From positions 1-54,063 of the IMG/VR virus record IMGVR_UViG_3300002242_000171: 54,063 bases of DNA; one strand, written 5' to 3'. Position numbers and translations under genes: made by a program. The DNA is from a virus. Lineage: Duplodnaviria; Caudoviricetes. A model generated the notes under the pieces. That model searched no databases, was not told the origin of the DNA, and saw only the letters and a list, made by a program, of their open reading frames with translations. Below are positions 238 to 52,195 of the stretch, piece by piece (position 1 is the stretch's first letter; every line of letters begins with the position of its first letter).

Positions 238-1179
238 TTATAGATTAATGATTTCATTAATTAAATAGTCGTATGATTTGATAAATGTTGCATCTTCTTT
301 TCTCTTTATAAATTGATCTCGCGACATTTCGCCAACATCGTTATATGGAAGAATGTTGATTTTATGTACTTCAATATCATATTCTAATAAAAGCTTTATG
401 ATCCTCAAAGTTTTTCTGTCAACATCTGGATCCAATGCAATATAAACTGGCGTGTCATTTTTTACAATTTCTTGGAACAATTTTGAATGCTCTCTTAAAG
501 TTGAACCAAGAATTGGAACTGCATTGTCTCCAGCTTTGATCGCATCAAAAACGCCCTCGACCAAAATCAGATCTTCGTCGAAGTCAAGATACAGCTCATT
601 AAAAATAATATCTTTGCTGGCTTGTGGATTTTTATACTTTCTCCAATCATCTCCATAACTTCTGGCAATGAAGAAGTTTGCTTTTCCACTCAAGCCAAAT
701 GAAGGAACAATAATTCGAGACCCAAAGTCTCCATCATCACAATAACCAATTTTCCACTTAACAATATCTTGTTTAAAGATTCCTCGACTTTCCAAATAAT
801 TTAAAGGATATAGAGATGTCTTTGGAAGATTTTTGTTTGCAAGAGATGCGAATTCTTTTGGCAAATCAAGAGTTTGTTCTTCTTCAACGAACTTATCATC
901 TTGCAGTAAAACTTCTGCGAAAGTCGAGACATCAATTTGTTGTGTTAACTGGCCCCATTCTTTTCGCTCTTCGTAGTTTCCATACTTACGAATTAAACGG
1001 TAGATTGATCGGCCGGCATATTCACAAACCCAACACTTAAAAACATCGCGCTCAATATTGACTGAAAGTTTATTTTTGTGATGATCACATTTTGGACAAG
1101 CGAAAAGAAGTTCGTTTCCAGCTTGATGATAATATCCTAAAACGTTTCTTAGGATTGAACGCTTTTTTCCGTCTGACAT
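238..1179 (-). CDS. DNA primase (zinc ribbon + TOPRIM), phage type
   Basis: CPKC...CWVC zinc finger; YLESRGI; RIIVP; TOPRIM LVEGVFDA and ALDPD. Start likely ATG 1179 (MSDGKK); the track extends to 1206. Confidence 0.9.
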   Translation of the reverse strand: MSDGKKRSILRNVLGYYHQAGNELLFACPKCDHHKNKLSVNIERDVFKCWVCEYAGRSIYRLIRKYGNYEERKEWGQLTQQIDVSTFAEVLLQDDKFVEEEQTLDLPKEFASLANKNLPKTSLYPLNYLESRGIFKQDIVKWKIGYCDDGDFGSRIIVPSFGLSGKANFFIARSYGDDWRKYKNPQASKDIIFNELYLDFDEDLILVEGVFDAIKAGDNAVPILGSTLREHSKLFQEIVKNDTPVYIALDPDVDRKTLRIIKLLLEYDIEVHKINILPYNDVGEMSRDQFIKRKEDATFIKSYDYLINEIINL

Positions 1180-1688
1180 ATATACCCTGCTTTTGCAATC
1201 ACCCAACTGTCTGCTTTATCAAAACAGTACGGTTTTGGATTGCCATGCTTAGTATATTCTATAAGAACAGACGGTACATTGTCAAGAACATAATCTATAA
1301 CAACTTGTTTTGCCTTGACACCTTTAGGTATTTTGATGCCACATTTTTTTCTTGCGGAGGTCGCTGCGACATATTCTGGTATTATATCTAGAATCGAATA
1401 ACATAGCCAGGATACGATTCCATTAAATCGAGAAAGAGTCGAAAGAGTCTTTGCTGATGAAAAGCCACTTCGAAAACTTTGTAAAGATTGTTCTATATAA
1501 ACAGCCTCTAGATGAAACATATCGTCTAGTTCCCATATTCTATCTTTAATAAAATCAGACTTGTCAAACAAAGTAGGAAAATACTTTTTATTGCGCATAT
1601 CCCAAGCTGTACAAAAAATAACTTTACCATCTTTATCTAAGACTGTTGCGCCAGTTATGCTCGTACTAATATCTAAACCTAAAATCAT
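1149..1688 (-). CDS. RuvC-like Holliday junction resolvase (RNase H fold)
   Basis: N-terminal ILGLDISTSITG, VYIEQ and C-terminal DKADS acidic catalytic motifs. Confidence 0.85.
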   Translation of the reverse strand: MILGLDISTSITGATVLDKDGKVIFCTAWDMRNKKYFPTLFDKSDFIKDRIWELDDMFHLEAVYIEQSLQSFRSGFSSAKTLSTLSRFNGIVSWLCYSILDIIPEYVAATSARKKCGIKIPKGVKAKQVVIDYVLDNVPSVLIEYTKHGNPKPYCFDKADSWVIAKAGYICQTEKSVQS

Positions 1689-1694
1689 ATTAAC

Positions 1695-1703
1695 ATTATA
1701 TCA
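1695..1703 (-). promoter_or_regulatory. Putative sigma70 extended -10 promoter (TGnTATAAT) for a probably leaderless resolvase-primase transcript
   Basis: TGATATAAT ends 6 nt before the resolvase ATG; no SD; sits at the boundary of structural and DNA-metabolism genes. Confidence 0.5.
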
Positions 1704-2843
1704 ATAATCTAGTTTAAGTTTAAATGTATAGTTATCGTTTTCTTGTTTACGGACCGGAGTGGCTACTTTGGCAATTCCAATTAAATTTTTATCTTTATCG
1801 AAAATGCCAACTTTAGAAATAAAAGTTTGTTTTCTAAATTCTGCATTATGCCCTGAAAAAGAACTGCTAATTGTATTCGCGATGGGTCTTTGTGTTTCCT
1901 GAAAATTAACAGAAGAAGTGCTTAAAGTACTAATATACTCGCTATCTTGAAATTCTGCATAAGTAGGATTATTCGAATAATTTAATTCACCTGCGGGGGC
2001 GTGTGCCAGCATTGTTATAATATTTGTTTTGGTCACTCCCTCAGCTTTAATTTTATAACTTGCATATGGAGTTAACATAGTTTTGCGCGCAAATGTATTC
2101 CAGCGGGGAGCAATTGCGCCGGCAGCATCAGATAAATATTTTGCATCAGTATAACTCGGACCTTCTGAAATATCCCAAGATCCTGTCAAAACTATTATTC
2201 CCTCGTTATATAAAACGACACCAGCCACCAAACCCTCGTGATCAGAAATAGTACCAGAAGATTGAATTAATTCTCCATTTCTGTTTTTATCTGTTAACTT
2301 GCCGATCAAAGATCCGGTGATATAAAAACATAATTCAACAGTGCCTTTCTTGATTGCGCTTCCGTAAAAGATAGAAGGAAAGTCAACTAATGTCAATCTT
2401 TGAGTTGCTTTATCACCCATTGACGATGAAAAATTATAATGAGAACTTAAGTATTTATAATAATTTAATGTATTTTTTAGCGCATCGATCTGGAGACGTG
2501 CGGAATCTGTGTTATATACATCTGTTGTTAAGGTCGCAGTTAATGGATAACTTCCTGTCATTAAAGTTCCCATATCCATGGCAGCATAAGTATATGAACT
2601 TACTCCTCTAAAAGCTTCTAACGACGAACCTTTCGGAAGAAAAGGATAAATTAAATTATCAGCAGCTCTGTTGACATTTAATTCATGTAAGTTGATGTTG
2701 CCAGCCGGCGTATTCGAATTTCCATCAGATTGATCTAAATTATTATAATATGCCCACTGGCCATAGATCCAAAAATTAAACTCAGGATTTAATTCAATCG
2801 TGTTTACAAAGACGTCATTTTCTTGAAATTCATAATAAGGCAT
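1701..2843 (-). CDS. Virion structural protein (baseplate/tail-collar-like C-terminus), paralog of 2855..4024
   Basis: Ends NYSNNPTY...FISKVGIFDKDKNLIGIAKVATPVRK...KLDY; shares the IKKG and GVVLY-G blocks with its neighbour. Confidence 0.65.
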   Translation of the reverse strand: MPYYEFQENDVFVNTIELNPEFNFWIYGQWAYYNNLDQSDGNSNTPAGNINLHELNVNRAADNLIYPFLPKGSSLEAFRGVSSYTYAAMDMGTLMTGSYPLTATLTTDVYNTDSARLQIDALKNTLNYYKYLSSHYNFSSSMGDKATQRLTLVDFPSIFYGSAIKKGTVELCFYITGSLIGKLTDKNRNGELIQSSGTISDHEGLVAGVVLYNEGIIVLTGSWDISEGPSYTDAKYLSDAAGAIAPRWNTFARKTMLTPYASYKIKAEGVTKTNIITMLAHAPAGELNYSNNPTYAEFQDSEYISTLSTSSVNFQETQRPIANTISSSFSGHNAEFRKQTFISKVGIFDKDKNLIGIAKVATPVRKQENDNYTFKLKLDY

Positions 2844-2854: not shown

Positions 2855-4024
2855 CTAGTAATCTAATCTAACTCTAATTGTTATTTCATTTGAAGGATCT
2901 TTACGGAGTGGTTCCGAAAGTTTCGCTGTTGCCAATAGTTCATTATCTGCTGAATATAAACCAATGGTTGTCACATATGAAACCGGTAGATCCGTTGATA
3001 CTGTTTTTGTAACAATTTGGCTAGCAGATAGATATGTCGGATTTGAACTGTAATTAAATTCATTATTGTTTAATCTACAGAAATAGATTGTAGAATTTAA
3101 TTCTGTAGTGTTATTAAAGTCGATGCTCTCGACGCGGTGACGTAAAGCGTCGCTGGCGCCAGAAATAGAAGACCCGGTAAGAAGAGCATTAATGGTTCCA
3201 GCTCCTTCGCCAAGTGCATTTCCGCCGCCGTCATACATAATGACATTTTCGCCCAAGCCCAAGCCGCCGGTGTCTGAAGCTCCGGTTAAGAAAACAGAAG
3301 CTGTTAGCACAGCAATGCCGGCCTGATAAAAAACCAAACCTGCCGAATCGCTAGTTTTAGGCTGAGCGTCTTGTGGTGTGCCGCTAAGGGGTGTGCCAAC
3401 ATGATTTGAAGCATATAAGATTCCATATTCGCCAACCGGTGAATTCACATAATAGCCGCTACTTCCTGAACTATCATTTAATCTTATTTGTTTTGCGAAA
3501 GTTGTTGCTGCTGTCGGGGTCGCATCATAATAAGCGGCACTAACGCCTAAATCTAAATAAAAACTACCTTTCTTAATCTCATCTTTATTGAGAAGTCGTG
3601 CGAAATTAATAAAAACAACTTCATTCATTTTGCCAGCGCCATCTGCCAAATTGCCATCGATGTCGAATCTTTGAATTTTTCCACTAGAATCATGTCCCAT
3701 TAAAACTTGAGACATTTGATTATATAAATTAACTTTATTTTTCTGTTGTGTTGCGCTAAATGGCGAAGAACTGGACAGTGCCGAACCGGTTGATAAACCA
3801 ACTGCTAAGTCCATAATATGATTAGCAGAAGAACTTAGGTAAGAATAGTCGTAAACAGCCTGAAACATTCCATGGGAAAAATTTTTAATATTAGTTTCAG
3901 TTGCCGTACCACCTTCGTTATAAGTACCTGATAAGATCGTGCCAGTCACTGGTATTGCTTCGTGCAATAATGTTCTAGTTGTTGTCTTGTCGTTGTTTAC
4001 AAATGTTTTATAAGTGCTTGCCAT
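2855..4024 (-). CDS. Virion structural protein, paralog of 1701..2843
   Basis: Ends FNYSSNPTY...YVTTIGLYSADNELLATAKLSEPLRK...RLDY; rich in Gly/Ser/Thr. Confidence 0.65.
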   Translation of the reverse strand: MASTYKTFVNNDKTTTRTLLHEAIPVTGTILSGTYNEGGTATETNIKNFSHGMFQAVYDYSYLSSSANHIMDLAVGLSTGSALSSSSPFSATQQKNKVNLYNQMSQVLMGHDSSGKIQRFDIDGNLADGAGKMNEVVFINFARLLNKDEIKKGSFYLDLGVSAAYYDATPTAATTFAKQIRLNDSSGSSGYYVNSPVGEYGILYASNHVGTPLSGTPQDAQPKTSDSAGLVFYQAGIAVLTASVFLTGASDTGGLGLGENVIMYDGGGNALGEGAGTINALLTGSSISGASDALRHRVESIDFNNTTELNSTIYFCRLNNNEFNYSSNPTYLSASQIVTKTVSTDLPVSYVTTIGLYSADNELLATAKLSEPLRKDPSNEITIRVRLDY

Positions 4025-4041: not shown

Positions 4042-5079
4042 TTAAGCTGTCTTTTTTAGAAAACGAATTGGAATATCAACTCTGTATCCTGTTGTTACAC
4101 CGGTTACTCTTACCGTTGAATCAATGTATTTGAATGTGCCTTGAAAATCATTCGCGGGAGGGCCGCCTGTAAGTCCAGTAGCTCCCCCTAGGCGGTCAAA
4201 CAAACTTTCGCTCGTATTTAGCTCTAGAGAAGCCTTTATTCCAAATCCAATTCGGGAGCCGCGAGGGCCGGCTATAGCAGAATTGTTGCCTACCGTAGAT
4301 GGGTCCTGTGTTAGTGCTTTGTAATTGGAATCAAAAAAAGCTGAATTATTATTTTTTGATATATAATAACTAGCAATTCGGTCATCGTCAACAAAATTAG
4401 GCTGAATTGTTGTCATCGAAAGTATTCCGGCGCCGCCGACAGCTCCAACAGACGCTATCTTTCCTAGCCTATCATCGATCTCAATAATATATTGATTTTC
4501 AATCAAATCAGAATCTAACTGAAAGGAAGCCGGAATATCTGTTGTATCCAATCCTTGATCCAAAACTATTCTTGTTTTATTATTATAATTTGGATTACCA
4601 TCTCCAACTATGATTCCCGTTACTCCATGAAGGGGCGCTCCGGCGCCGTCATTTTTGCATGTACTAGTAGTCTCGTCGACAGTTATAACATACATACCAG
4701 AAGAAAGATCATCGAATGCTGTTGCGGTAGCTCCGCTTTTGCCAAACGTGTTTGAATTTACAACTAGGTCATCGTCATTTACTAATTTAACAACCGGCAA
4801 ATAAAATAAATTATTTCTCGGTATTGTCATTAACTTATGCTTGCAAGAGCCAATATTGTTAGTAAATGCTTCCAAAATCGGTGTTGTCAAGATATCTAAA
4901 TCATAATAAGCTGATCCGGATGCATTATTTTTATCATATTTTCCATAATCAATCTCGTCATCAGCAACTGCAAATTTTGTAATTTTAAAAGAGCCATCGC
5001 CTCTCGCTAAACGTTCGCGGCCTAGGTCAGTTAAAACGGCGTCAAGAATAATGTCGCCTGAATTGTCTAAAAATCCCAT
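4042..5079 (-). CDS. Virion structural protein with tail-collar-like N-terminus
   Basis: N-terminus DAVLTDLGRERLARGDGSFKITKFAVADDEIDY resembles the start of P2 gpH-type tail-collar (DUF3751) domains; SD GGAG upstream. Confidence 0.6.
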   Translation of the reverse strand: MGFLDNSGDIILDAVLTDLGRERLARGDGSFKITKFAVADDEIDYGKYDKNNASGSAYYDLDILTTPILEAFTNNIGSCKHKLMTIPRNNLFYLPVVKLVNDDDLVVNSNTFGKSGATATAFDDLSSGMYVITVDETTSTCKNDGAGAPLHGVTGIIVGDGNPNYNNKTRIVLDQGLDTTDIPASFQLDSDLIENQYIIEIDDRLGKIASVGAVGGAGILSMTTIQPNFVDDDRIASYYISKNNNSAFFDSNYKALTQDPSTVGNNSAIAGPRGSRIGFGIKASLELNTSESLFDRLGGATGLTGGPPANDFQGTFKYIDSTVRVTGVTTGYRVDIPIRFLKKTA

Positions 5080-5155: not shown

Positions 5156-8071
5156 CTATTTTTGTAAAATTGGTTTTTTAAATCTAGTAAAGATGTCAAG
5201 TTTTCTTCCTGTTTTTTTCGAAACTAATCTTATTTTAAATTGATTATAGCTACTGTTTGTATTGTTTTCATCAAATCCAAAAACAGATTCTTTTTTGACT
5301 CCTAACTTTATTGTTTTTGTGTCATTGTTTAGTGTATCTTCTACATATTCTTTCAAAGAATTTTGTATTTGTTCATTATTCAGATCTAGACCGCCGGTGT
5401 CTGTTTTTTCATCAATAATTGATTGGCCAAAATTAGGCTTTAATCTTAAATATTTTCGAAAACTTGTGGCCGACTTATTTAAGTCGCGCAATTTTTTATT
5501 TAAATAATAAAAATGATCATGATCGTAGGTGTTTAATACAAAATATATTGCGCCCTCGTTGTTTATCGCCTGAAGTTCAAAAATATTTGTTGGATTAGAA
5601 AAATTCATTGCTTCCAAAGTATCAACATGTTTTTCATCTAATGAACGGAATATATACCAATATTTTGTATTAGGCGAAATATTATCCAAATATGACGGAT
5701 TACCATCTGCAGCGCTTAATGTCACTTTTTTAGACAGGCCCGGGTTGCCAAAATCAAATAAACTAGCCGGACCATTAGGCATTGTATTTTCCGATATTCG
5801 ATATAATTCAAAAGCAGAAACGTCGCCTTCCGATTTAAAACGAACTCCTCCACTTTTTTCCTTGGGAGTACTTTGGATCGCTGGAAAATCTGTTTTCTTG
5901 ATAGCGTCAGGTCTTAATACTATATCTCCTGTTCCATTTTGGAACATAATTAAAACTTCACGATCATTGTTGCGATATGGCACAAAATCAACAATTGGTG
6001 CCAAAGGCGGCGACTCATGTACAACTGTTTTTTTAGGCTTTACATATGGAATTTCTACTAATCTAGCAGATGTTCTATATTGAACATCTACTTCTACTTC
6101 AAATCTTGGGCGTCCCTCATCTGGATTTCTAATTGTTGGATTATCTTTATAGTTATACAAATTACCCAAGACAAATTGAATTGCAAAAATAGTATATTGA
6201 TATTCTTTGCCATAAACAACTTGTGTATCTATTATATTGGCATCGATTAATTGTGAGTCATTTAATACATAAAAATTCTGAATGAACGTTCCGTCCATAT
6301 CTCTTTTTTCAATTCGATAAAAAAGTGTTTCGTTATAACATGTTTTCCCTCGCATTATATCTTTAAAGCCTCTTGCTTTGCTTTTGGTGAGAGTGTCATA
6401 TAACGATAAAAATTTTATTTTTTTAATCAAGGCTGTCAAAGGATTAACCTGCAATAGATTAATATCATCATCAAAAAACTCTTCAGAAGAAATAGATATG
6501 GCCTTATCTTGCGCATTGGAAATTGTATTACTCAAGAAGCTAGTATTACCGCTGACCAACTCAATAGCATATTGAACAAAAAGATCAAAATCACAAACGT
6601 TTAAATCATGTGGAAATCCAGTAGCCCAAGTTTTTTCTCCGCTAGCCACATTATTGTCTATAATTTGCTCTTCCTGGTATGTATAAAATGATTTTGGTGC
6701 TTTGGATGATTGTATATAATATGCTACCAAAACATCGAAGAGGCCAGCAATTTTCAAAATATCTGCAACTTGAGTATTGGTATCTGTATTAAAAGTAACT
6801 TCATTATAAAAAGGAAAAGATCCTTTTGTGATATTGATATCATCTGTTTTTAAAGCCTCTAAGGGGAAAATAACATTTCGAAACTTCTTGCATGTATCTT
6901 TCAGAACTGGATCACCAGTAATTTCTAGAGATTTTTTTCCAAATACATCTCCCCATGTTTCATAGTATTCATTTCCAGATCTTCCATGAGAAACGCCGTC
7001 ATAAGCAGGATCTGTTTTTTCTAGAGCCCTCAAGATATTTCCCTCAAGTCGATTATTGAGAGTAGTATGTGTCGCATAATTTCTATCAACAGAAACATTT
7101 TCAACATTATCCATTTGTGATGAATTAATTGGATTATTTTTTTCTGCCAAAATTACATTAAAATTTGGAAGATATAATTCTAGCGGTATTTCATTATCGA
7201 CAGGCGATGAGAAGATTGACTCATAGGCCGGCTGATGGAAATTGTAATTTGATTCTAAATTTGTATATAAGACTTTTACTACACCTAATTCATCACTAGT
7301 TATACTATCGTACGGATGTAAAAACACAAATGGAAAATCATAATAACCATTTGCATTATGAGTGCCTAGTCCTAGTTTATGAATATTTAAATCTTCAACA
7401 AAATCTCTCCAAGCATCCGGCGGGAAACTTGATAAAGTAATTGGTGCTAAATAATTTGTCTTCTCCTCTAAGCCGCCCTGCGGGATCGAAATAATAAAGC
7501 TAGTTAATTTAGAATCTGTGTAAGAAGCGATCTGGTTTCCCATATCTGCAAAATTATAAAAAACAGACGCTTCAAAACGATCAGTGCTGATGTCTTTGTT
7601 TATTTCTATATGTTTGTTGTCTAACGCTTGTAGATTAGTGTTTAAGAATTCATATTTTCCAGAGCCCGAGTATCTATAGAAAAACTTGCCTAGATTATAA
7701 CGAACCAAATCTGCATTATATAATATTGATGAATCAAGATCGGTTTTAAATTTTCCGTAGGAAGGAGGCAAAGTAGGCAAGCCGACCAAATGAGATAGTC
7801 TTTGCAAATTTCCATCATGCACAAATAACGTTTCGTATCCTACCAAAGATAAATTTTTAAAATTAGACGCCGTAGTATTATTATTATCTGATGTGCCAGC
7901 TGGTGGCATTGGAGTGTCCTGGTCCGAACTTTGATCCCCTAAAGGCGGGTGCACAGTATCATACGCGCCGTTGTCTGCTGCGTTTTCTCCTTGAGTTGAA
8001 CCATCTTGTGCTGGCTGATTGACCGCATTCGTCATTTCTTCGACTAGGTTTTTTCCGTCTTCATTAAACAT
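5156..8071 (-). CDS. Large hypothetical virion protein (971 aa), possible Fn3/Ig-like C-terminal domains
   Basis: Long ORF in the structural module; PPLAP...FELYR...YLDNISPNTKYWYIFRS and DTQVVYGKEYQY patterns are Fn3-like. Confidence 0.55.
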   Translation of the reverse strand: MFNEDGKNLVEEMTNAVNQPAQDGSTQGENAADNGAYDTVHPPLGDQSSDQDTPMPPAGTSDNNNTTASNFKNLSLVGYETLFVHDGNLQRLSHLVGLPTLPPSYGKFKTDLDSSILYNADLVRYNLGKFFYRYSGSGKYEFLNTNLQALDNKHIEINKDISTDRFEASVFYNFADMGNQIASYTDSKLTSFIISIPQGGLEEKTNYLAPITLSSFPPDAWRDFVEDLNIHKLGLGTHNANGYYDFPFVFLHPYDSITSDELGVVKVLYTNLESNYNFHQPAYESIFSSPVDNEIPLELYLPNFNVILAEKNNPINSSQMDNVENVSVDRNYATHTTLNNRLEGNILRALEKTDPAYDGVSHGRSGNEYYETWGDVFGKKSLEITGDPVLKDTCKKFRNVIFPLEALKTDDINITKGSFPFYNEVTFNTDTNTQVADILKIAGLFDVLVAYYIQSSKAPKSFYTYQEEQIIDNNVASGEKTWATGFPHDLNVCDFDLFVQYAIELVSGNTSFLSNTISNAQDKAISISSEEFFDDDINLLQVNPLTALIKKIKFLSLYDTLTKSKARGFKDIMRGKTCYNETLFYRIEKRDMDGTFIQNFYVLNDSQLIDANIIDTQVVYGKEYQYTIFAIQFVLGNLYNYKDNPTIRNPDEGRPRFEVEVDVQYRTSARLVEIPYVKPKKTVVHESPPLAPIVDFVPYRNNDREVLIMFQNGTGDIVLRPDAIKKTDFPAIQSTPKEKSGGVRFKSEGDVSAFELYRISENTMPNGPASLFDFGNPGLSKKVTLSAADGNPSYLDNISPNTKYWYIFRSLDEKHVDTLEAMNFSNPTNIFELQAINNEGAIYFVLNTYDHDHFYYLNKKLRDLNKSATSFRKYLRLKPNFGQSIIDEKTDTGGLDLNNEQIQNSLKEYVEDTLNNDTKTIKLGVKKESVFGFDENNTNSSYNQFKIRLVSKKTGRKLDIFTRFKKPILQK

Positions 8072-12923: not shown

Positions 12924-12927
12924 TTAT

Positions 12928-23010: not shown

Positions 23011-23016
23011 CTAGAA

Positions 23017-26889: not shown

Positions 26890-26924
26890 TTTCTTCTATC
26901 TCCTTGATTATAATTATTTGCTTA

Positions 26925-39956: not shown

Positions 39957-39959
39957 ACA

Positions 39960-42494: not shown

Positions 42495-42854
42495 TTAATC
42501 GCCCTTAATAATCCTATGAGAATCACTATCAAAATGCTGTGTTGAAAATTCAAACAATTCTGTATCTTCAAGTGCAACCATCTGATGCCTTAATCCACGA
42601 TAAACATGAAAATTATCTCCACGTTCTAAAATTAATTCTGATGCATTCTCTATATCATCATCATCTGAATATTTCACAAGCATTTTGCCAGATTGAATAT
42701 AGAAAACCTCATCTTTCAATTCATGAAAGTGCCAAGAACATCTCTTTCCTTTGACAAAATATAATAATTTTCCACAATATTCTTCACAATTGACGATCCA
42801 TTTTTCAAATCCCCAACCTTTTGGTACAAAATTAATCTCCATAGAAGTGTTCAT
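42495..42854 (-). CDS. Cupin (mannose-6-phosphate isomerase C-terminal-like)
   Basis: VPKGWGFE...SWHFHELKDEVFY...H. Confidence 0.8.
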   Translation of the reverse strand: MNTSMEINFVPKGWGFEKWIVNCEEYCGKLLYFVKGKRCSWHFHELKDEVFYIQSGKMLVKYSDDDDIENASELILERGDNFHVYRGLRHQMVALEDTELFEFSTQHFDSDSHRIIKGD

Positions 42855-44279: not shown

Positions 44280-44282
44280 TGT

Positions 44283-45290: not shown

Positions 45291-45291
45291 T

Positions 45292-46458
45292 TTAAGGCCT
45301 TCTGTTTAATTTTTCGCACAAAGATACAATTTGCTTTTCAGATAATTCAGTATGGTTTCCGATATATAAACTATTTTCATGAATAAAATCAGCATTATTC
45401 AAATTACCTGAAATTCTAAATTCGTAGTTCTTTAAATACGGCTGTCTGGCTTGATTGCCGCCGCCGGCAGTGCCCAGACGATATTCTACCCCTTCTTCTT
45501 CCAAAGTTCTGCAAATTTGTTTTAATAATAGAGAGTTGGCTTCTTTTAATATTAGAGGTAATGCAAAACTACTATTGCCCTGTAGATTAAAATCAGTAAA
45601 AAACATATCTTTGTCTAATGAATTGAGCCATGTGTTCAAATTATCTTTTCTACAGGAAATGTTATAATCTAGCCTTTTTATTTGTTGCAAACCCAATACT
45701 GCATTCAGTTCAGTGCTGCGCATATTGTAGCCTGGTACTCCAAATGTAAAAAGTGGATTTAAGCCTGTTTCATAATATCCTTCATGGGTTTTTTTATCGA
45801 CTTCTCGCGTCATCCCATGAGAACGAAAAAGTCTAGCTAATTGATATATCTTATAGTCATTTGTGCAAACCATGCCTCCTTCTATCGTTGTGATATGGTG
45901 ACCAAAATAAAAAGAGAAGCAAGACATGTCTCCTAAAGTGCCAACTTTCTTATTTTCATGTTCAGCTCCGTGTGATTCACAGCAGTCTTCAATTAACAAG
46001 AGATCATTTTTCTTTGCTAATCGAATTATCTCTTCGTTCAAGCCATCAAAACCCAAACAATGAACCAAAACAATTGCTTTTGTATTTTCATTGATTGCGT
46101 TTTTAATATTTTCATAAGAAATTGCCATAGTCTCTTTATCAACATCAACAAAAACCGGCTTGAAACCAGTATTGATCACAGAAGCAACATCAGAAACCCA
46201 TCCAATTGGTGGAACAATAATTTCTCCTTTCTGTCCCTTCATTTCGCGGGTTATGGCCATGGTAATATAATTCGCAGAAGCTCCGGAATTGACCATGACA
46301 CTATATTTAACTCCTAGCCATTTTGACCAAGCTTCTTCAAATTCTTTTACTTTTGGCCCATTTGTAAAGCGGTTTGAATTTAATATAAAATCTGCCAATG
46401 CTAGCTTATCTTCTTGAGTTATATTATCGTTAATTAAGGGTATATTAAAGTTCTTCAT
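45292..46458 (-). CDS. PLP/PMP-dependent NDP-4-keto-6-deoxyhexose 3-dehydratase (ColD/RfbH-type, DegT fold)
   Basis: NSGASAN, IEDCCE; SFYFGHHITTIEGGM has His instead of the Schiff-base Lys. Confidence 0.8.
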   Translation of the reverse strand: MKNFNIPLINDNITQEDKLALADFILNSNRFTNGPKVKEFEEAWSKWLGVKYSVMVNSGASANYITMAITREMKGQKGEIIVPPIGWVSDVASVINTGFKPVFVDVDKETMAISYENIKNAINENTKAIVLVHCLGFDGLNEEIIRLAKKNDLLLIEDCCESHGAEHENKKVGTLGDMSCFSFYFGHHITTIEGGMVCTNDYKIYQLARLFRSHGMTREVDKKTHEGYYETGLNPLFTFGVPGYNMRSTELNAVLGLQQIKRLDYNISCRKDNLNTWLNSLDKDMFFTDFNLQGNSSFALPLILKEANSLLLKQICRTLEEEGVEYRLGTAGGGNQARQPYLKNYEFRISGNLNNADFIHENSLYIGNHTELSEKQIVSLCEKLNRRP

Positions 46459-47978
46459 TAGTCTCCTAGTAATTTTCTTTTTAATTTAATTTTTGTATTT
46501 TCAACAATATTATCTGCGGCAATATCTCCGAACTTATTTCTTATTTTAGCTAAGAATTTAGGCGATGTATGAAATTTATTATAAGCTTCGTCTCTAAATT
46601 TTAAAATTTCTGCAGCAGTTAAATTATTGGTTGACAAAGGAAGCGTGTTATATGAATGCCATGAATATCCTGCATAATCTTCTGGGAGTTCTGCTCCTCT
46701 TTCAATAGCATCTTTATATAACTGACTTCCAGGCAAAGCCATTGATGCATAAAAGTTTGCCATGGCCGGCGCCAGATCTATGGCTAATTCTAAAGTTTTC
46801 TCCATGCTCTCAACAGTATCGGTCGGTAATCCAAATATAAAATTTGCTCCTACATTTATGTCAGCTTCTTCAACTTGTCGTACAACTTCATGAATATCAA
46901 CATCTTGAAATTTACCTTTTGAAACTTCTAGTCTTACGTTTCTATCTCCGCTTTCAATACCTAAGCCAAGCCATCTAATTCCTGATTCTCTTACTATTTT
47001 TAAAACATCTGGGCGTCGAATAGTATCAATTCTAGAATAGGCCCACATTCGTAAATCTTTTCCATATCCTCTTTCGATGAGGCCTTCACATACTGGCAAA
47101 TAATATTTCGGATTTAATAAAAACATCTCATCAATGATTCGAATATTTTTGACACCCATCTCAACTAATTTATCGAATTGCTTTAAAACAAATTCAGGTG
47201 ACCAATATCTCATCATACTATAATTTCCAGCAACTCCAATTGGATCATTGTCATTGCGATTTAAAATATTAATCATACAAAATTCACACTTAAATTGACA
47301 CCCCAGAGAGGTATTGATAGCTGCATATGGAGTTCTAATTTCATGATCGTATTCGGCATGCCACATAGGGCAACGATATAAATCAAATGGCTTTTCTTTA
47401 AAAGGTAATAAGTCCCAAGCATAGCCAGGTAAATCAACATCCATTCTTGAAGTAGGAACTACTTTTTCCGGCTTATTCAAAATAATTTGATCATTTTCTC
47501 TATATCCAATACCTTTTATATTTTTTAAATTATCCAAATTATTTAGTAAGTTTCTTAAAGCATATACACCTTCGTTGGTAAACACGATATCAACACTTTT
47601 CTCTTCTTTTAGTGTTTCGTATGGAAGTGCCTGCACATGAGAGCCAATAAAAGAAATTGGAATTTGAATACCGGATTTTTTAATATGATCCGATAGAGCA
47701 ATTGCGCCGCTCATAGTAGTTGTGCCGGCATTTACATTTTGACCATATGCAACAACGCATATTAGCCTAGGATCGGCTTTTTTTATTCTTTCGATAGCAT
47801 TATCTAAAGTTAGTTTTTCGGCGGCCGTATCTAGTATATCTACTTTAAAACCAACAGATCTGCAAGATTCTGCCAACAAACATGCCCAGGTCGGTGGTTC
47901 AACTGCTGCATAATCTTTTGCCAAATCTTGATATAATGATTTGGCATTGCCCGGGGCTATGAATAAAACGTCTAACAT
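46458..47978 (-). CDS. Cobalamin-dependent (class B) radical SAM enzyme
   Basis: N-terminal B12-binding-like Rossmann domain; GCQFKCEFC CxxxCxxC; IDEMF; GIESG; FIFGLP. Confidence 0.88.
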   Translation of the reverse strand: MLDVLFIAPGNAKSLYQDLAKDYAAVEPPTWACLLAESCRSVGFKVDILDTAAEKLTLDNAIERIKKADPRLICVVAYGQNVNAGTTTMSGAIALSDHIKKSGIQIPISFIGSHVQALPYETLKEEKSVDIVFTNEGVYALRNLLNNLDNLKNIKGIGYRENDQIILNKPEKVVPTSRMDVDLPGYAWDLLPFKEKPFDLYRCPMWHAEYDHEIRTPYAAINTSLGCQFKCEFCMINILNRNDNDPIGVAGNYSMMRYWSPEFVLKQFDKLVEMGVKNIRIIDEMFLLNPKYYLPVCEGLIERGYGKDLRMWAYSRIDTIRRPDVLKIVRESGIRWLGLGIESGDRNVRLEVSKGKFQDVDIHEVVRQVEEADINVGANFIFGLPTDTVESMEKTLELAIDLAPAMANFYASMALPGSQLYKDAIERGAELPEDYAGYSWHSYNTLPLSTNNLTAAEILKFRDEAYNKFHTSPKFLAKIRNKFGDIAADNIVENTKIKLKRKLLGD

Positions 47979-48877
47979 ATGATTTCCTGCTTAATTTTTG
48001 AAATTATTTTTGATGCGGAGGGTGGCAAATTATCTACCGTTGGATAAAATCCTGCTGTTCTGTTCTCCAGACACATCGTGCGAACACATTTTCCTGATTG
48101 GACCATCATCCTGTGTGCAATACTGCTAGCGGCACCTTCCTCATAATCATCATCCAATACAATACCACCATATTTTGAATTATTTAAGGCTTTTTTCCAC
48201 TCTTCTTTAAAGACAAAAGGCTTAATCCATAATTGGTGAATTACATTAACTTTCAATCCTTCTTTTTCCAGTTCTATTCTAGCTTTTTCTGCTTCAAATC
48301 TTGTTATTGATATTGGAAAAAGAGTTATATCTGCTTCTTGATGAATTGTATTTTTGAATTCTTCTGTATTATCATAGCTTTTTCTGTGTTCTGAGATATA
48401 GTAGACCTCATCATCTTTCATGAATTCATCATACGCGTATTGATATTCAGCGGAACTCATTGGAGATAATATTTTAACTCCAGGCATTCTCTGGTATATA
48501 GAATGATGCGAAGATCCTGCAACGGGCCCCATTCCTCCTTCCATCGCGATGCTACGAATCAGAAGAGGGCATGATCGATCCCAAACTTCTTTTGATTTCA
48601 TAGCATAATTTGCAATAATTGGAGAGTTAAACCATTGAAATCCTTGATATCTAACAACATAAATCGGCCTTTCGCCGGCCAGCGCTGCTCCAACAACAAT
48701 TCCGGCGCCTGCAACATCAGCCATTGATAATTCTACCATCCCATCTTTTTCATAAAGTTCAGGTAATGTGCCGCCGACCCATCCAACTGCAGTTAAACAC
48801 TGGCCATAACACTTTGAACCATTTTTTAAGTGGTGCCTGGTGATGTCTTTTATTGTTTGTCTAACTGTTTTTGCCAT
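47972..48877 (-). CDS. ThDP-dependent E1 beta / transketolase C-terminal-like subunit
   Basis: ELSMADVA...GAALAGERPI, PGVKILSP, SEHR; paired with an alpha subunit. Confidence 0.8.
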   Translation of the reverse strand: MAKTVRQTIKDITRHHLKNGSKCYGQCLTAVGWVGGTLPELYEKDGMVELSMADVAGAGIVVGAALAGERPIYVVRYQGFQWFNSPIIANYAMKSKEVWDRSCPLLIRSIAMEGGMGPVAGSSHHSIYQRMPGVKILSPMSSAEYQYAYDEFMKDDEVYYISEHRKSYDNTEEFKNTIHQEADITLFPISITRFEAEKARIELEKEGLKVNVIHQLWIKPFVFKEEWKKALNNSKYGGIVLDDDYEEGAASSIAHRMMVQSGKCVRTMCLENRTAGFYPTVDNLPPSASKIISKIKQEIIC

Positions 48878-49692
48878 AGTTGCTCCACCTTTTCTTTAGT
48901 TTCATTATGAATTTTTTGAGCTATTTTGCCTAATCCGGACATTTCATGCTCATATCGATCAAAAGTATTCGGATCATCAATGCCAGCGCCTGAATGCCAA
49001 AATTTTCTATGAGTATTTATGTTTAATAGCATAGGGGCCTCAAAGACATTTTCTAAACATTCTTTAATCTCCAAAGGGTTGTCAGAAGTTTGCATGCCTT
49101 TCATTCCGAAAGCTTTTGCTACGTCATCCATCTCCCACTTTCTTCTTACTTTTTTTTCTGTCAAGATAGATAAATTGTTATCTTCAACAACAAATAAAAT
49201 AGGTAAATTTTTAGTAGAGGCCCAGCCCATTGCCCCTAGGACATAATCTTCTTCAGCGGACGCGTCTCCCATATAAACAATTGTGGGCTGTTCGGTCTGA
49301 TAGCAGTGGCCAACCGAAATTGGAACTTGGCTTCCCATTAGGCCATCATGGCCAAATATGTTTTTTTCCTTTGAATGGATAGACGCTGACCCGCCCATTC
49401 CTCCTGCACAACCAGATTTTCTTCCCAATAATTCATCGATCAATTTATCTATTGGTGCTTCGAATGACAAGTATGTAGAATGACCGCGGTGTTGTATGAA
49501 TATGTTTGGTTCAATATTTTTTTCTGCCATAACTTCTGCAATCGATGCAGATATATATTCTTGTCCTGCTGACAAGTAAATTGGAAACTTGAACATTTTA
49601 TTTTGAATACCATCAAAAACATATTGCTCAAAGTTTCTGCATAAAGAAGCTCTTTTGAAAACATTAAGCCTATATTGGTTATTCACATTCAT
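48850..49692 (-). CDS. ThDP-dependent E1 alpha-like subunit
   Basis: SAGQE, HRGH, GMGGS, and ThDP motif GDA...EDNN. Confidence 0.85.
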   Translation of the reverse strand: MNVNNQYRLNVFKRASLCRNFEQYVFDGIQNKMFKFPIYLSAGQEYISASIAEVMAEKNIEPNIFIQHRGHSTYLSFEAPIDKLIDELLGRKSGCAGGMGGSASIHSKEKNIFGHDGLMGSQVPISVGHCYQTEQPTIVYMGDASAEEDYVLGAMGWASTKNLPILFVVEDNNLSILTEKKVRRKWEMDDVAKAFGMKGMQTSDNPLEIKECLENVFEAPMLLNINTHRKFWHSGAGIDDPNTFDRYEHEMSGLGKIAQKIHNETKEKVEQLWQKQLDKQ

Positions 49693-50602
49693 GAAATTTT
49701 AAATTTCCTGTTGTATAGTGGGAGAAGGTGGTTTTTTTATGTAAAACATGATCATCGTTTATTGATCTTTTCGTAGAAATCAGCAAATCTTCTCCTATAA
49801 TTTTAAAGTCATTAGTATATTCTGCTTCTCTATCCGGATGGACGCTGTGCTCTCCTATTAGGATTGTAGTATCAATTGAAGCGCGCGTTCCTGATTTTTT
49901 CTTTCTGTTGGTTGCATGAATCAGCGCATAATCACTAATGTGAACTTTGCCTTTTTTTGGTATCAAACTCTCATCAGGCTCATAATAATCTAGCACCCAT
50001 TGCATTTCTTCATATGTTGCGGCAGTGTTCAAAAACCTATCTGAAAAAGATGATTTATCTTTAGGGCTCCAAAAAATAAGATTATTTTTCTCAACATCCC
50101 CCAGCAAAGGAATATAACAATTCATTGACCATGGGCCCTCAACCCAAGCATCAGAATGAGGAAAACTGGTATTTAATGTTCTATTAACATTGTCCTCTAA
50201 TTCTGTTCCAAATTTAATTCTAATATTAGGCGTCATTCTAAATTTTGTCATTAAATTAGGATTATTTTTAATAATGCTATTGACTATGTTAGACCAGCTT
50301 CTCAAAACTAAATTATATTCTATTTGATATTCTTTTTTAGGAACAACTCCGCCATTTGGAGTAACATTATCTCTTTTTAATCTATTATCATCTATTTTTT
50401 GGATAAATTCTTCTTCATTTGTTGTAAAATCAAAATATAAAGCTTTCGATATGTAGAGCATCATAGAAAATTTTAAAGATCGTAATTCTTCATCTGTTGG
50501 AGTATAAGAAACCATAAGATCATGTACTCTATCTAAATTCCAATCATTTTGCATTTTTAAAAATCTAGATTTTCTATACGTATAATCCTCACTCATTTTC
50601 AT
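49679..50602 (-). CDS. Putative 2OG-Fe(II) dioxygenase
   Basis: PHSDAW (HxD), NCYIPL, distal IHAT and RASID (RxS) motifs. Confidence 0.6.
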   Translation of the reverse strand: MKMSEDYTYRKSRFLKMQNDWNLDRVHDLMVSYTPTDEELRSLKFSMMLYISKALYFDFTTNEEEFIQKIDDNRLKRDNVTPNGGVVPKKEYQIEYNLVLRSWSNIVNSIIKNNPNLMTKFRMTPNIRIKFGTELEDNVNRTLNTSFPHSDAWVEGPWSMNCYIPLLGDVEKNNLIFWSPKDKSSFSDRFLNTAATYEEMQWVLDYYEPDESLIPKKGKVHISDYALIHATNRKKKSGTRASIDTTILIGEHSVHPDREAEYTNDFKIIGEDLLISTKRSINDDHVLHKKTTFSHYTTGNLKFHECE

Positions 50603-50991
50603 TTTAATCTCTCTTTTATATCACGCATGGTGTCTTCCCAATTTTGAAAATAATATCCTTTATCATCAATATAGAGCTGAGCGCGGGGCTTTTCGCATGT
50701 AATTTCATCAATATATTGCAAAACATTATATTTTTCCAACCACTCTGTAACCAACTCTGTTCCGTTTTTCCCATTAACCAGTGGTCGCGAGGGTTTTACT
50801 TTTGCTGTAAAAATAATAATATTAAAATTTTTTGATAAATCTTTGATCGCCTCTAAGGATCCCGGAAGGGGATCTCCATAGCATGTACCATCGTGCCATC
50901 CTTTACTAAAATCATGTATTACTCCATCAAAATCGATCGCAACATTTTTTAAATCTTTTTCAAATCCTGGTGGTACTTCTTTATTGCTCAT
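50599..50991 (-). CDS. Small HAD-family phosphatase
   Basis: IDFDGVI, IFTA, KP..LYIDD. Confidence 0.8.
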   Translation of the reverse strand: MSNKEVPPGFEKDLKNVAIDFDGVIHDFSKGWHDGTCYGDPLPGSLEAIKDLSKNFNIIIFTAKVKPSRPLVNGKNGTELVTEWLEKYNVLQYIDEITCEKPRAQLYIDDKGYYFQNWEDTMRDIKERLK

Positions 50992-51652
50992 TGCTTTTCT
51001 CCATGGTAATAATAATTGTTTCTATGTCTAAGACAGTAAAAACTTGCATAAGTTGTTTGAGCGTGTTAGATGATATAACGTCCCCGGGGCCGGCGACAGT
51101 TGTTCCATAATTTGTTTTTAAGCCGCCGCGCAAAAATATAATATTTTTATCATCTTGAATATTTTTTAAAGAGGAAATACTTTCTATCTTAACAACATCA
51201 ATTTTTGAATTTGCAATCTTATATGCATGTGCGTCGACGGGGTCTTCTATCCACAAACAATCGTTCTTCTTGGGCATCTCAAACGTTTTATCTTCATACG
51301 GAGTGCCTTCGCGACCATACTTGTCTTTAAGTCGTACTAAGTCATGCTTATCAACAGGAGTCTCAATTTCAAAAATATATGCACCTTCCTTTGAAGTTGC
51401 TTTCGTCGAATGAAACAAGCCTTTTCGAATCATGATTTTTTCTAGAGATTTAAGTTCGAAAGAATCATTGAGAAAAGAGACTTCAACTTTGCCATCAATC
51501 AAAATCAAACCAGTAGTTTTATTTGGATGACAATGCATAGAAGTGCTTTGATCCGGCGCTATGTATAAACACCATAGAGCAACATTTTCATTTTCGTATG
51601 CAAGGTATTCATATCCCCATGGTTTCTTAACAATGTTATCAAACTTTCTCAC
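50981..51652 (-). CDS. Cupin-domain protein
   Basis: KKPWGYEY, SMHCHPNK, FHST, EIETP; GTG start. Confidence 0.75.
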   Translation of the reverse strand: MRKFDNIVKKPWGYEYLAYENENVALWCLYIAPDQSTSMHCHPNKTTGLILIDGKVEVSFLNDSFELKSLEKIMIRKGLFHSTKATSKEGAYIFEIETPVDKHDLVRLKDKYGREGTPYEDKTFEMPKKNDCLWIEDPVDAHAYKIANSKIDVVKIESISSLKNIQDDKNIIFLRGGLKTNYGTTVAGPGDVISSNTLKQLMQVFTVLDIETIIITMEKSNEQ

Positions 51653-51655
51653 AAG

Positions 51656-52195
51656 TTATTTGCCTCTTTTTTCAAAAGTTTGATATCCCGCTCTCATCCA
51701 TTCACCCATAAAATCATAATGAGGTGAAGAGACTATATTGCTATCAACTACAACTGGGCCTCGATGATATTTTGCGCCGGCATTGTTAATATCGGCTTCA
51801 ATGGCATAATAGCCAGATACAGTTTTTCCTTCAATAACGCCGGCTGTAATTAATAATTGTGCTCCGTTGCACAAAGAAAAAATAGTCTTGTCTAGAGCAT
51901 TCCATTCACGAACGAATTCAACAACTCCCTCTTCTAATCTTAATTTTTCTAAAGCTTTGACACCGCCTGGAACAACCAAAATATCGTATTCTAGATATTT
52001 TTTTCTATTTTCAGAGTCATTAAAATCAGTTGTTAATACATCGCCAACCATATGACAGCCCAAAATACCATAAAATCTGCCTAGCTGATTAGCAACAACA
52101 GTAACTTCAAAATTATTTTCTTTCAAACTATGATACGGATAAATAACTTCATGGTCTTGAAATCCGGTATACGTAAGAATAAGCGCTCTTTTCAT
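51656..52195 (-). CDS. DJ-1/PfpI family protein
   Basis: GFQDHE, VPGG, SLCNG nucleophile elbow, VVVDSNIVSS. Confidence 0.85.
   Translation of the reverse strand: MKRALILTYTGFQDHEVIYPYHSLKENNFEVTVVANQLGRFYGILGCHMVGDVLTTDFNDSENRKKYLEYDILVVPGGVKALEKLRLEEGVVEFVREWNALDKTIFSLCNGAQLLITAGVIEGKTVSGYYAIEADINNAGAKYHRGPVVVDSNIVSSPHYDFMGEWMRAGYQTFEKRGK

Follow-up and report, generated by a model that had tools for sequence, protein, structure and literature searches.

The window analysed here is the whole of the virus record IMGVR_UViG_3300002242_000171 (Duplodnaviria; Caudoviricetes), 54,063 bp in length, and the element in question is the hexamer palindrome GCCGGC, which occurs in it 39 times. The window has a G+C content of 35.8% and a coding share of 98.6%, and its long open reading frames (ORFs) all lie on the minus strand. 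Short, perfect, ungapped palindromes that contain C/G are in excess throughout the genome, GCCGGC being the most frequent of them, and the trait belongs to one lineage of uncultured marine myoviruses. An earlier note, made from the letters alone, had counted at least 39 copies of GCCGGC and roughly 25 of GGCGCC, with one or two GCCGGC expected by composition at an estimated one-third G+C; exact counting gives 39 copies, including all 24 coordinates that it listed, 25 copies of GGCGCC and a compositional expectation of 1.75.

Among the encoded proteins are a gp25-like protein and a baseplate wedge protein resembling gp6; a primase-like ORF is located at 238-1206, and the match to a DnaG-type primase is weak. 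Two giant ORFs, 12928-23010 (3360 aa) and 26925-35420 (2831 aa), probably encode fibre or tail proteins; their sole family match is one Laminin_G_3 domain. A 12-kb nucleotide-sugar cluster at 41538-54055 contains genes for two nucleoside diphosphate (NDP)-sugar dehydratase/epimerase proteins, a cytidylyltransferase, a PfkB kinase, a DegT-type aminotransferase and a B12-binding radical SAM enzyme, along with a split transketolase/E1-like pair, cupins, DJ-1/PfpI, a deoxythymidine diphosphate (dTDP)-sugar 3,5-epimerase and a glycosyltransferase. Because relatives in IMG/VR that are 82-100% complete measure 148-210 kb, the window probably represents about a third of a myovirus genome.

All 39 copies of GCCGGC fall inside long minus-strand ORFs. 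Thirty of them read GCC-GGC (Ala-Gly); the Pro-Ala frame accounts for eight and the Ser-Arg-His frame for one, at 37069, in agreement with the frames noted earlier for 1012 (Ala-Gly), 2704 (Pro-Ala) and 37069. The spacing is random, with a coefficient of variation (CV) of the gaps of 1.01 against 0.97 for random placement. A longer, 8-bp 'true' motif was considered and rejected, as symmetric extension is found in 12 of the 39 copies, near chance. The copies are as follows, with the frame and residues of the minus-strand ORF.

1012-1017, Ala-Gly frame (YAGRS), in the primase-like ORF 238-1206
2118-2123, Ala-Gly frame (AAGAI)
2704-2709, Pro-Ala frame (NTPAG)
3317-3322, Ala-Gly frame (QAGIA)
4267-4272, Ala-Gly frame (IAGPR)
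7227-7232, Pro-Ala frame (HQPAY)
11540-11545, Pro-Ala frame (GSPAL), within the 8-bp palindrome CGCCGGCG
12780-12785, Ala-Gly frame (YAGVT), within CGCCGGCG
15676-15681, Ala-Gly frame (PAGWL), in the giant ORF 12928-23010
15884-15889, Pro-Ala frame (AWPAP), within GGCCGGCC
15904-15909, Ala-Gly frame (PAGSI)
16177-16182, Ala-Gly frame (VAGGG)
16768-16773, Ala-Gly frame (YAGNA)
16999-17004, Ala-Gly frame (FAGDS), within CGCCGGCG
17371-17376, Ala-Gly frame (MAGGP)
19177-19182, Ala-Gly frame (SAGHQ)
19792-19797, Ala-Gly frame (FAGIK)
22141-22146, Ala-Gly frame (CAGGF)
24332-24337, Pro-Ala frame (VVPAS), missing from related contigs of three metagenome runs, which have A at 24332
30594-30599, Ala-Gly frame (SAGAK), core of the 10-bp palindrome GCGCCGGCGC at 30592-30601
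30903-30908, Ala-Gly frame (GAGED), overlapping GGCGCC at 30906
32121-32126, Ala-Gly frame (EAGAE), overlapping GGCGCC at 32118
32767-32772, Pro-Ala frame (IKPAK)
35697-35702, Ala-Gly frame (IAGYV), core of the 14-bp palindrome CATAGCCGGCTATG at 35693-35706
36929-36934, Ala-Gly frame (CAGLY); the residue preceding Gly is variable in homologues
37069-37074, Ser-Arg-His frame, with the rarest Arg codon, CGG (10 uses in total); Gln or Asn in five homologues
38552-38557, Ala-Gly frame (EAGYS)
39290-39295, Ala-Gly frame (EAGHG), within GGCCGGCC and adjoining CCATGG at 39285
39605-39610, Ala-Gly frame (NAGST)
39807-39812, Ala-Gly frame (EAGQI), within GGCCGGCC
40525-40530, Pro-Ala frame (IGPAF), within GGCCGGCC
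44667-44672, Ala-Gly frame (EAGQL), sugar dehydratase gene
45463-45468, Ala-Gly frame (TAGGG), aminotransferase gene
46765-46770, Pro-Ala frame (LAPAM), overlapping GGCGCC at 46768; radical SAM gene
47724-47729, Ala-Gly frame (NAGTT)
48674-48679, Ala-Gly frame (LAGER)
51089-51094, Ala-Gly frame (VAGPG), adjoining CCCCGGGG
51776-51781, Ala-Gly frame (NAGAK)
51839-51844, Ala-Gly frame (TAGVI)

The 25 copies of GGCGCC, 22 of them in the Gly-Ala frame, span 3155 to 48709 and start at 3155, 4429, 4642, 11146, 12357, 14518, 15178, 17323, 18241, 18532, 24571, 25735, 26337, 27375, 29847, 30906, 31047, 31938, 32118, 32961, 33648, 37093, 42093, 46768 and 48704.

Markov models of order 0, 1, 2, 3 and 4 predict 1.75, 3.4, 10.6, 24.0 and 20.8 copies of GCCGGC (Poisson P 0.003 at order 3 and 2e-4 at order 4). 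Shuffling synonymous codons within genes yields 8.1 copies (standard deviation 2.7, maximum 16 in 1000 shuffles, z 11.6), and confining the shuffle to 30-codon blocks raises this to 15.6 (z 7.9). Shuffles of third positions that keep the protein, the codon family and all dinucleotides give 11.2 (z 8.5), those that additionally fix the next two bases 18.0 (z 6.4), and a shuffle preserving the G/C-versus-A/T state of each third position 22.7 (z 5.4). The over-representation of GCCGGC claimed earlier thus survives all codon-aware null models and the fourth-order Markov model, none of which reaches the observed count; the 22-fold excess by composition becomes about 2-5-fold once coding is accounted for. 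The enrichment of GGCGCC, also proposed at that stage, is weaker: it holds against the shuffles (25 observed, 8.3-12.4 expected; 9.1 and z 5.6 with protein and dinucleotides kept) but not against the fourth-order Markov model (18.3, P 0.08).

An account without any special force would treat these counts as a leftover of codon usage, Gly/Ala-rich proteins, local G+C clustering or runs of GNC codons. It is in keeping with the predominance of Ala-Gly among the copies, with the share of GGC among Gly codons (37%) and with an excess that shrinks as the order of the null model rises. Codon usage and dipeptides were nevertheless rejected as the cause, since z remains high in synonymous shuffles and stays at 5-8 under null models that keep protein, codon usage, dinucleotides and G/C-versus-A/T states. 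GCC-GGC is used in 30 of the 87 Ala-Gly dipeptides where codon usage predicts 6.3, and the third bases of the two codons depend on each other (Fisher P 1e-5). Local G+C clustering is a real layer of the signal, yet an insufficient one, as the z of 5.4 with the G/C-versus-A/T state fixed indicates. Runs of GNC codons were rejected likewise: in pooled palindrome-rich relatives (described below) GCCGCC and GGCGGC reach only 1.16-1.18x, against 2.2-2.4x for the palindromic pairings, which excludes codon clustering. Pairwise base correlations at distances 1-12 are too small to matter (1.02-1.06x only).

The excess extends well past these two words and covers nearly all C/G-containing ungapped palindromes of 4-8 bp, genome-wide in coding DNA. 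The top hexamers in the synonymous shuffle are GCCGGC, CCTAGG, TCCGGA, GGCGCC, CCCGGG, CCATGG and ACCGGT; the 64 hexamer palindromes have a mean z of 1.89, against -0.05 for other hexamers, with about 55 of the 64 above expectation, and palindromes supply nine of the top 15 hexamers under the fourth-order Markov model. With protein and dinucleotides kept, there are 1337 hexamer palindromes where 1086 are expected (z 9.8) and 462 8-mers where 323 are expected (z 9.5). The hexamer ratio rises with the number of C/G positions (1.02, 1.21, 1.59 and 2.65 for 0, 2, 4 and 6), while composition-matched non-palindromes stand at 1.03, 0.99, 0.97 and 1.68. As all-G/C non-palindromes are also raised, a layer of G+C clustering is present, with a palindrome layer above it.

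Within classes the excess is largely even. All-G/C palindromes are homogeneous (common ratio 2.63, P 0.22), with GCCGGC at 3.4x, CCCGGG at 3.7x and GGCGCC at 2.8x, and so is the class with two C/G positions (P 0.43). The class with four is heterogeneous (P 2e-4), mainly owing to CCTAGG (17 copies, 4.7 expected) and to the missing words GAGCTC, CTCGAG and CACGTG, of which the window has zero copies (4.8, 2.3 and 1.4 expected). Only these three are avoided, in what looks like a shared avoidance of three restriction-type sites. General avoidance of restriction sites was not seen in the window, where hexamer palindromes stand at 1.23x against 0.85 in control phages. CTAG, usually the rarest tetranucleotide of bacteria and phages, is above expectation in the window (169, 138 expected). 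Several non-palindromes are depleted on the gene strand relative to the synonymous shuffle (TACACC 0 and 8.4 expected, ACTCTA 1 and 11.4, ATTAGG 4 and 16.6, TAAGGA 3 and 14.5, and the 5-mer CATTG 28 and 54); these may be asymmetric targets of defence systems or internal Shine-Dalgarno-like words.

Palindromes are in excess whatever the frame (1.40x, 1.15x and 1.15x for the three), so the effect is at the DNA level. It was detected in 29 of the 36 genes and in all six regions tested (1.18-1.56x), bearing out the earlier remark that GCCGGC is spread over gene types, sugar genes included; it peaks in the giant tail-fibre-like ORFs and a block at 35-41 kb (1.40-1.56x) and is lowest in the sugar cluster (1.18x). 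In a 1092-aa gene of that block (36386-39664), all five CCATGG sites use residues seen in no homologue. Three of these residues are Met, at places occupied in relatives by Ile, Lys/Arg or Leu/Phe/Tyr; the observation is post hoc and concerns a single gene. A drive at the amino-acid level was rejected for the same gene: lineage-unique residues underlie 38.9% of G/C-rich palindromes and 37.8% of other G/C-rich hexamers.

The signal has a strict symmetry. Enrichment is confined to reverse-complement symmetry with no gap, which reaches 1.23x among 6-mers and 1.44x among 8-mers (z about 10); direct repeats are at background level, and so are mirror repeats (1.02 for 6-mers, 1.00 for 8-mers) and complement words (1.02 and 1.12, respectively). 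Gapped inverted repeats with gaps of 1-12 (1.0-1.1x) do not differ from mirror and direct repeats, so hairpin or stem-loop inverted repeats were rejected as the source. For the core CCGG, copies with mutually complementary flanks number 97 where 37.7 are expected (2.57x) and copies with other flanks 80 where 97.8 are expected (0.82x). The same holds for CTAG (2.09x with complementary flanks, 0.89x with others), CATG (1.67x and 0.97x) and CGCG (2.18x and 0.86x), and GCGC is likewise enriched only with complementary flanks. Since only mutually complementary flanks are enriched, the independent half-site preferences of one dimeric protein are excluded, and the protein-binding site suggested in the earlier note clashes, in the form of a single dimeric protein, with these flank data.

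The palindromes are gained at the expense of near-palindromes. The 249 surplus perfect hexamer palindromes are offset by a shortfall of 206 among words with a single mismatched pair, the most depleted class being that with the inner pair mismatched (0.947), and words with fewer complementary pairs match expectation. Near-palindromes one synonymous transversion away from perfection are depleted (0.87, z -5.6) and those needing a transition are not (0.99), from which it follows that the force is blind to the type of substitution. The neighbours that deamination would produce are not depleted (GCTGGC/GCCAGC 23, 16.6 expected; GTCGGC/GCCGAC 15, 9.8 expected), and variants in the outer position are near expectation (ACCGGC/GCCGGT 14, 15.2 expected; TCCGGC/GCCGGA 23, 27.2 expected). 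The next outer pair is complementary too often at the steps from 2 to 4 bp (z 3.6), 4 to 6 bp (z 6.9) and 6 to 8 bp (z 3.9), with nothing beyond this in the window.

Nine phages served as controls: Microcystis phage Mel-JY01, Flavobacterium phage vB_FspM_immuto, an uncultured 484-kb phage, four cyanophage-type records, lambda and T4. In a gene-free, maximal-order Markov comparison, G/C-rich hexamer palindromes stand at 1.52 in the window and at 0.50-0.90 in the controls. The gene-aware pipeline gives 0.85 for the nine pooled (z -16.7), the avoidance being limited to the steps from 2 to 4 and from 4 to 6 bp, and 0.87 for 15 palindrome-poor relatives. GCCGGC itself occurs zero to two times in eight of the control genomes (67-484 kb; the nine minus lambda).

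Relatives were placed by means of the window's baseplate protein, which is 32-33% identical to its counterparts in Mel-JY01 and immuto and 28% identical to that of the 484-kb phage. The best 80 of 597 IMG/VR relatives were kept in the alignment, and two loci (L124 and L128) with a best match below 400 aa were dropped, leaving a tree of 82 rows: the window, three GenBank phages and 78 loci. Thirty-seven rows, including the window, are rich in palindromes (Markov ratio of at least 1.1), 19, including the three GenBank phages, are poor (0.9 or less), and 26 are intermediate or too short; the window is the most extreme. L051, sister to the window with support 100 and 63% protein identity, has seven GCCGGC and seven GGCGCC in 21.8 kb. 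The gene-aware null model confirms the rich state in five of the seven relatives tested from the rich class (L112, L120 and L088 at 1.42x, L096 at 1.35x and L122 at 1.30x; z 3.9-5.7), the other two being L051 (1.31x, z 3.0) and L065 (1.15x, z 2.1), and the poor state in L058 (0.22), L054 (0.17), L066 (0.36) and L103 (0.27), with z about -7. The state has changed at least six times on the baseplate tree, where shuffled labels average 16.1 changes; L058 (0.25) and L063 (1.27) are sisters with 73% protein identity.

Twenty-two rich relatives were pooled (383 kb); as they were picked for richness, the total excess of the pool is not independent evidence. Within it, no other of the 4096 hexamers ranks as high as GCCGGC (278 copies, 115.7 expected, 2.4x; 1.5x or more in each of 19 loci) and GGCGCC (240, 110.9 expected, 2.2x; 1.5x or more in each of 20 loci); next come the words that overlap them, CCGGCG, CGGCGC, CGCCGG and GCGCCG. 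Other palindromes are raised to a lesser degree (CCCGGG 2.17x, CCGCGG 1.95x, GGGCCC 1.73x, GCTAGC 1.66x), and many with four C/G positions are at about 1.0-1.2x. The pool thus has leading words trailed by their own overlaps, as in HIP-type iteration; in the window, under coding-aware null models, CCTAGG, CCCGGG, CCATGG and ACCGGT are as enriched as those two words. The pool repeats the frame, symmetry and flank results of the window, and its outer-pair effect extends from 6 to 8 bp (z 9.6) and from 8 to 10 bp (z 3.5).

Each lineage has its own set of missing palindromes. GAGCTC and CTCGAG are nearly absent family-wide (pooled 0.15x and 0.20x), and CACGTG is missing in most lineages (pooled 0.76x); the 148-kb record G005 has 0, 2 and 4 copies of GAGCTC, CTCGAG and CACGTG, with about 33 each expected by composition for the first two. 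L054 and L058 are purged of most G/C-rich hexamer palindromes (12 and 19 copies, 71 and 86 expected), far beyond lambda and T4-like cyanophages. The record G014 (that of L108, 146,626 bp) lacks CCGG palindromes (TCCGGA 0, ACCGGT 1, GCCGGC 1, CCCGGG 0) and is rich in CAGCTG (71, 24 expected by composition); adjacent PF01555 and Dam-type methyltransferase genes lie at about 14.2-16.5 kb.

The sites turn over between relatives. The earlier note had proposed a check on orthologous sites, and none of the 13 aligned GCCGGC sites is common to the window and L051. Where their amino acids agree, the two have the same word at 8 of 28 G/C-rich palindromes, compared with 105 of 635 other words (P 0.12), and across 12 rich, strongly diverged pairs (45-80% amino-acid identity, counted both ways) palindromes are conserved at 15.9% against 13.3% (P 0.10).

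In related metagenome contigs the population is very diverse. Contigs 80-100% alike are present in four runs from four studies (seawater, marine plankton, marine and estuary metagenomes). When contigs of the four runs (X1, X5, X6 and X7) were matched to window positions 11500-31499 at a likeness of at least 80%, a mosaic population with 4209 variant places was found, and within the giant ORF and baseplate genes hundreds of joints leap over 100 bp to 10 kb. Searches with tblastn using the two large ORFs against GenBank phages found no matches, including none for the 2831-aa ORF among 50,697 phage records, and single-protein and narrower-alignment scans of viral and metagenome contigs recovered no close relative's DNA; protein relatives with 64-84% identity exist. 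The aminotransferase gave no host signal, as its matches are scattered over Lachnospiraceae, Bdellovibrionales, Patescibacteria and others at 32-51% identity.

Together, these results establish a lineage-specific, directional force on the DNA duplex, under which words of 4-8 (10) bp that contain C/G tend towards perfect dyad symmetry; that it acts on the duplex follows from sites that are mostly synonymous, lie in all frames, turn over and are gained at the expense of near-palindromes. The force is not coding, codon usage or local G+C. It toggles between sister lineages and coexists with avoidance of GAGCTC, CTCGAG and CACGTG. It could consist in biased fixation of mutations that complete a dyad, or in weak selection for such sites. 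Since some lineages have no copies at all, no core function of the phage depends on the sites.

Several known systems offer partial parallels. The closest are the alternate highly iterated palindromes (HIPs) of cyanobacteria, namely GGCGCC in Calothrix PCC 7103 and rCCGGy (GCCGGC, GCCGGT, ACCGGC) in Oscillatoria PCC 10802, which are linked to methyltransferases under a model that requires a G-C step (Elhai 2015, PMC4390886). Against a yardstick of 500-2500 copies/Mb, and a compositional observed/expected ratio of 15.5 for Calothrix D253 (Elhai 2015, PMC4390886), GCCGGC here reaches 721/Mb and a ratio of 21.8, and GGCGCC 462/Mb and 14.0. The likeness lies in the same two words, a similar density and comparable ratios (14-22 here), in next-ranked words that overlap the palindrome in the 22 pooled relatives, and in strong avoidance of the same sites in related genomes. 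Unlike these HIPs, the present case concerns a phage rather than a cyanobacterium and comes with no matching methyltransferase gene in our searches; ACCGGC/GCCGGT is not raised and ACCGGT is; and dozens more palindromes are raised, some of them without a G-C step. The bias of one-off variants towards the outermost position that Elhai-type growth would leave (growth from a methylated core by G-meC-dependent repair) was not seen in the window.

HIP1 itself (GCGATCGC) resembles the present case as a G/C-rich palindrome found about once per kb, mostly intragenic and thought to be linked to methylation. It differs in its word, as GCGATCGC has only two copies here and CGATCG six (5.9 expected), and in its arrangement: HIP1 is described as conserved and quasi-periodic (PMC13756078), while spacing here is random and the sites turn over. 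The HIP1-like iteration of the earlier note accordingly stands as to size, genome-wide reach and action at the DNA level, and falls on the point of a single iterated word.

In subcluster B3 mycobacteriophages, GATC and GGATCC are over-used more than 4-fold genome-wide without explanation (Siranosian et al. 2015, PMC4841201). This is again a phage lineage with a genome-wide excess of a restriction-type palindrome that its relatives do not share; the words there form one family around an A/T-containing core and the phage is high in G+C, whereas many words are affected here and sister lineages alternate between excess and avoidance. CCGG is over-represented in Helicobacter (Kr about 1.4-1.5) despite systems that recognise it, for which the authors give no explanation (Rusinov et al. 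2015, PMC4687349); the parallel is the over-representation of a Type II site, and the difference is that it concerns a single 4-bp word in a cellular genome. In Neisseria gonorrhoeae, CCGG is enriched in pilE/pilS, and antigenic variation needs undermethylated copies cut by two restriction systems (PMC13321361). The likeness lies in CCGG/GCCGGC sites enriched within variable surface-protein genes, with a function that in the gonococcus depends on host restriction-modification; the gonococcal enrichment is local and the cutting demonstrated, whereas the phage excess is genome-wide and known from sequence.

Under-representation of short palindromes has been described for genomes of all kinds (PMC3077040). 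Restriction-site avoidance by phages concerns the same word class (palindromes of 4-6 bp) and operates in this family too, on GAGCTC, CTCGAG and CACGTG throughout and, in poor lineages, on almost every G/C-rich palindrome. All other palindromes show the opposite sign in the window and its rich relatives, and the effect reaches 8-10 bp. A search of open-access full-text literature found single-word precedents, and no phage clade with a general palindrome excess or with switching between sisters.

We tentatively favour, at rather less than even chances, the reading that the force is derived from the host and linked to cytosine methylation of palindromes, by analogy with what has been proposed for HIP1 and the alternate HIPs. 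The force would then originate in the host environment, tied to methylated cytosines at palindromic sites. Where a site is methylated and not cut, the strand choice of mismatch repair, or a benefit of methylated sites, would ratchet its copies up; where it is cut, copies would be purged to zero. This reading is ranked first because the identity and density of the leading words match methyltransferase-linked alternate HIPs, because only cytosine-bearing palindromes respond (AT-only 1.02), because words are purged or inflated lineage by lineage, and because the trait flips between close sisters.

A considerable set of observations weighs against the methylation-linked reading. More than 20 different palindromes are raised in the window, homogeneously in the classes with two and six C/G positions; the dependence on mutually complementary flanks is strict, so that one dimeric enzyme per core is insufficient; CCATGG, CCTAGG, CCCGGG and ACCGGT are enriched without the G-C step of Elhai's model; the reach to 8-10 bp in pooled relatives exceeds the usual length of a methyltransferase site; there is no depletion of deamination neighbours; and spacing is random. 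No methyltransferase, Vsr or nuclease domain was found in the 36 ORFs of the window, which is part of a genome, nor was DpdA/TGT or a ThyA-type hydroxymethylase. Among 23 relatives' records (45-210 kb, CheckV completeness 23-100%, four of them at 81-100%), none was found to carry a C5-methyltransferase (PF00145), Vsr (PF03852), TGT/DpdA (PF01702), a ThyA family protein of hydroxymethylase type (PF00303) or psbA/psbD (PF00124), a sign of a cyanobacterial host. A PF01555 methyltransferase is present in three of the 23 (G005, G008 and G014) and a Dam-type enzyme (PF02086) in two; the PF01555 enzymes of G005 and G014 are nearest to the adenine methyltransferases DpnA, MboIIA, RsrI and CcrM, and both kinds of enzyme look adenine-specific, which for PF01555 adds to the points against. 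The C5-cytosine methyltransferase or Vsr-like nuclease that the earlier note had suggested looking for is therefore found neither in the window nor in these records, and with both gene searches empty, cytosine modification encoded by the phage is not supported.

The close rival of the methylation-linked reading is a sequence-general mutational process that perfects palindromes, which we regard as possible, if on the unlikely side. In such a process, replication or repair would copy one half of a self-complementary core from the other half, for instance by strand switching on a G/C-rich core, so that flanks turn complementary regardless of the word, and avoidance would later remove some words. 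The breadth of the excess, the complementarity of the flanks, the reach to 8-10 bp and the lack of a cytosine methyltransferase gene all favour it. What matters is the complementarity of the flanks and not the identity of the bases (ACCGGC/GCCGGT near expectation, GCCGGC 3.4x, ACCGGT 2.8x); ratios are homogeneous within C/G classes; near-palindromes are depleted, and among them the transversion neighbours and not the transition neighbours; the outer-pair effect extends to 8 bp in the window and 10 bp in the pool, where the avoidance of control phages ends at 6 bp; and the dependence on C/G content would follow from annealing strength. On the other hand, known template-switch mutagenesis uses looped hairpins, and gapped inverted repeats are at background here. 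Words that poor sisters do not avoid are not enriched in them (0.66-0.82), so the process would have to differ between genomes with 73% baseplate identity. The excess is also to a degree word-specific, with GCCGGC and GGCGCC leading in 19 of 19 and 20 of 20 loci and TGGCCA, ACCGGT, TCGCGA and CAGCTG at about 1.0 in relatives. To our knowledge, a genome-wide process of this kind has no precedent, which also counts against it.

Positive selection for the sites appears improbable. Occasional breaks by host restriction or a phage nuclease would fuel recombination among co-infecting relatives, or the sites would be bound by a symmetric protein. The gonococcal pilE/pilS case, where CCGG is cut by restriction systems for antigenic variation (PMC13321361), offers a precedent. 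It would also fit that the excess peaks in the 35-41 kb block and the giant ORFs resembling tail fibres and is lowest in the sugar cluster, and that the mosaic metagenome contigs show hundreds of joints. Selection for evolvability is however weak and second-order, the excess is genome-wide and not local, the sites are conserved no better than other words at the same amino acids, lineages with zero copies thrive, and the flank test rules out one dimeric protein per core.

A very-short-patch ratchet of the Dcm/Vsr type is very improbable and, for the phage itself, largely refuted. In it, 5-methylcytosine turns into T and site-specific T:G repair restores C, inflating the methylated word, as with CCWGG in E. 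coli, a precedent in its favour; the restriction of the excess to C-containing palindromes agrees with it. Its T-containing neighbours are not depleted, GCTGGC/GCCAGC and GTCGGC/GCCGAC being above expectation and transition neighbours at 0.99, and neither Vsr nor C5-methyltransferase was found in the 23 records. This lack of genes and of depleted deamination neighbours leaves the ratchet unsupported, and the methylation/repair ratchet of the earlier note, in that form, fails with it. The compositional leftover, finally, is largely excluded and scarcely credible, for although all-G/C non-palindromic hexamers are raised too, mirror and complement words of equal composition stand at 1.0 and the nine control phages show deficits in the same pipeline.

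The deficit of palindromes in phages is usually read as a footprint of restriction enzymes, and a clade with the opposite sign, which flips between sisters, shows that a second, comparably strong force works on the same words. If that force is linked to methylation, these phages would provide a small, fast-evolving test system for the origin of HIP-type palindromes, a question three decades old; if it is sequence-general, it would be a mutational or repair process not previously described. The missing and inflated palindromes of each lineage could act as a 'barcode' of host range or defence for uncultured phages. Perhaps, though we consider it less likely than not, the marine myovirus clade carries a switchable 'dyad-symmetry drive' that converts near-palindromes into perfect ungapped palindromes whatever the word, reversing the usual avoidance by phages. 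Such a drive, if real, would be off, or overrun by restriction avoidance, in sister lineages; it would be either a novel mutagenesis or repair process that works from a template, or a novel means by which phages exploit host restriction-modification; and the enriched words would form a readable record of methylating versus cutting host enzymes.

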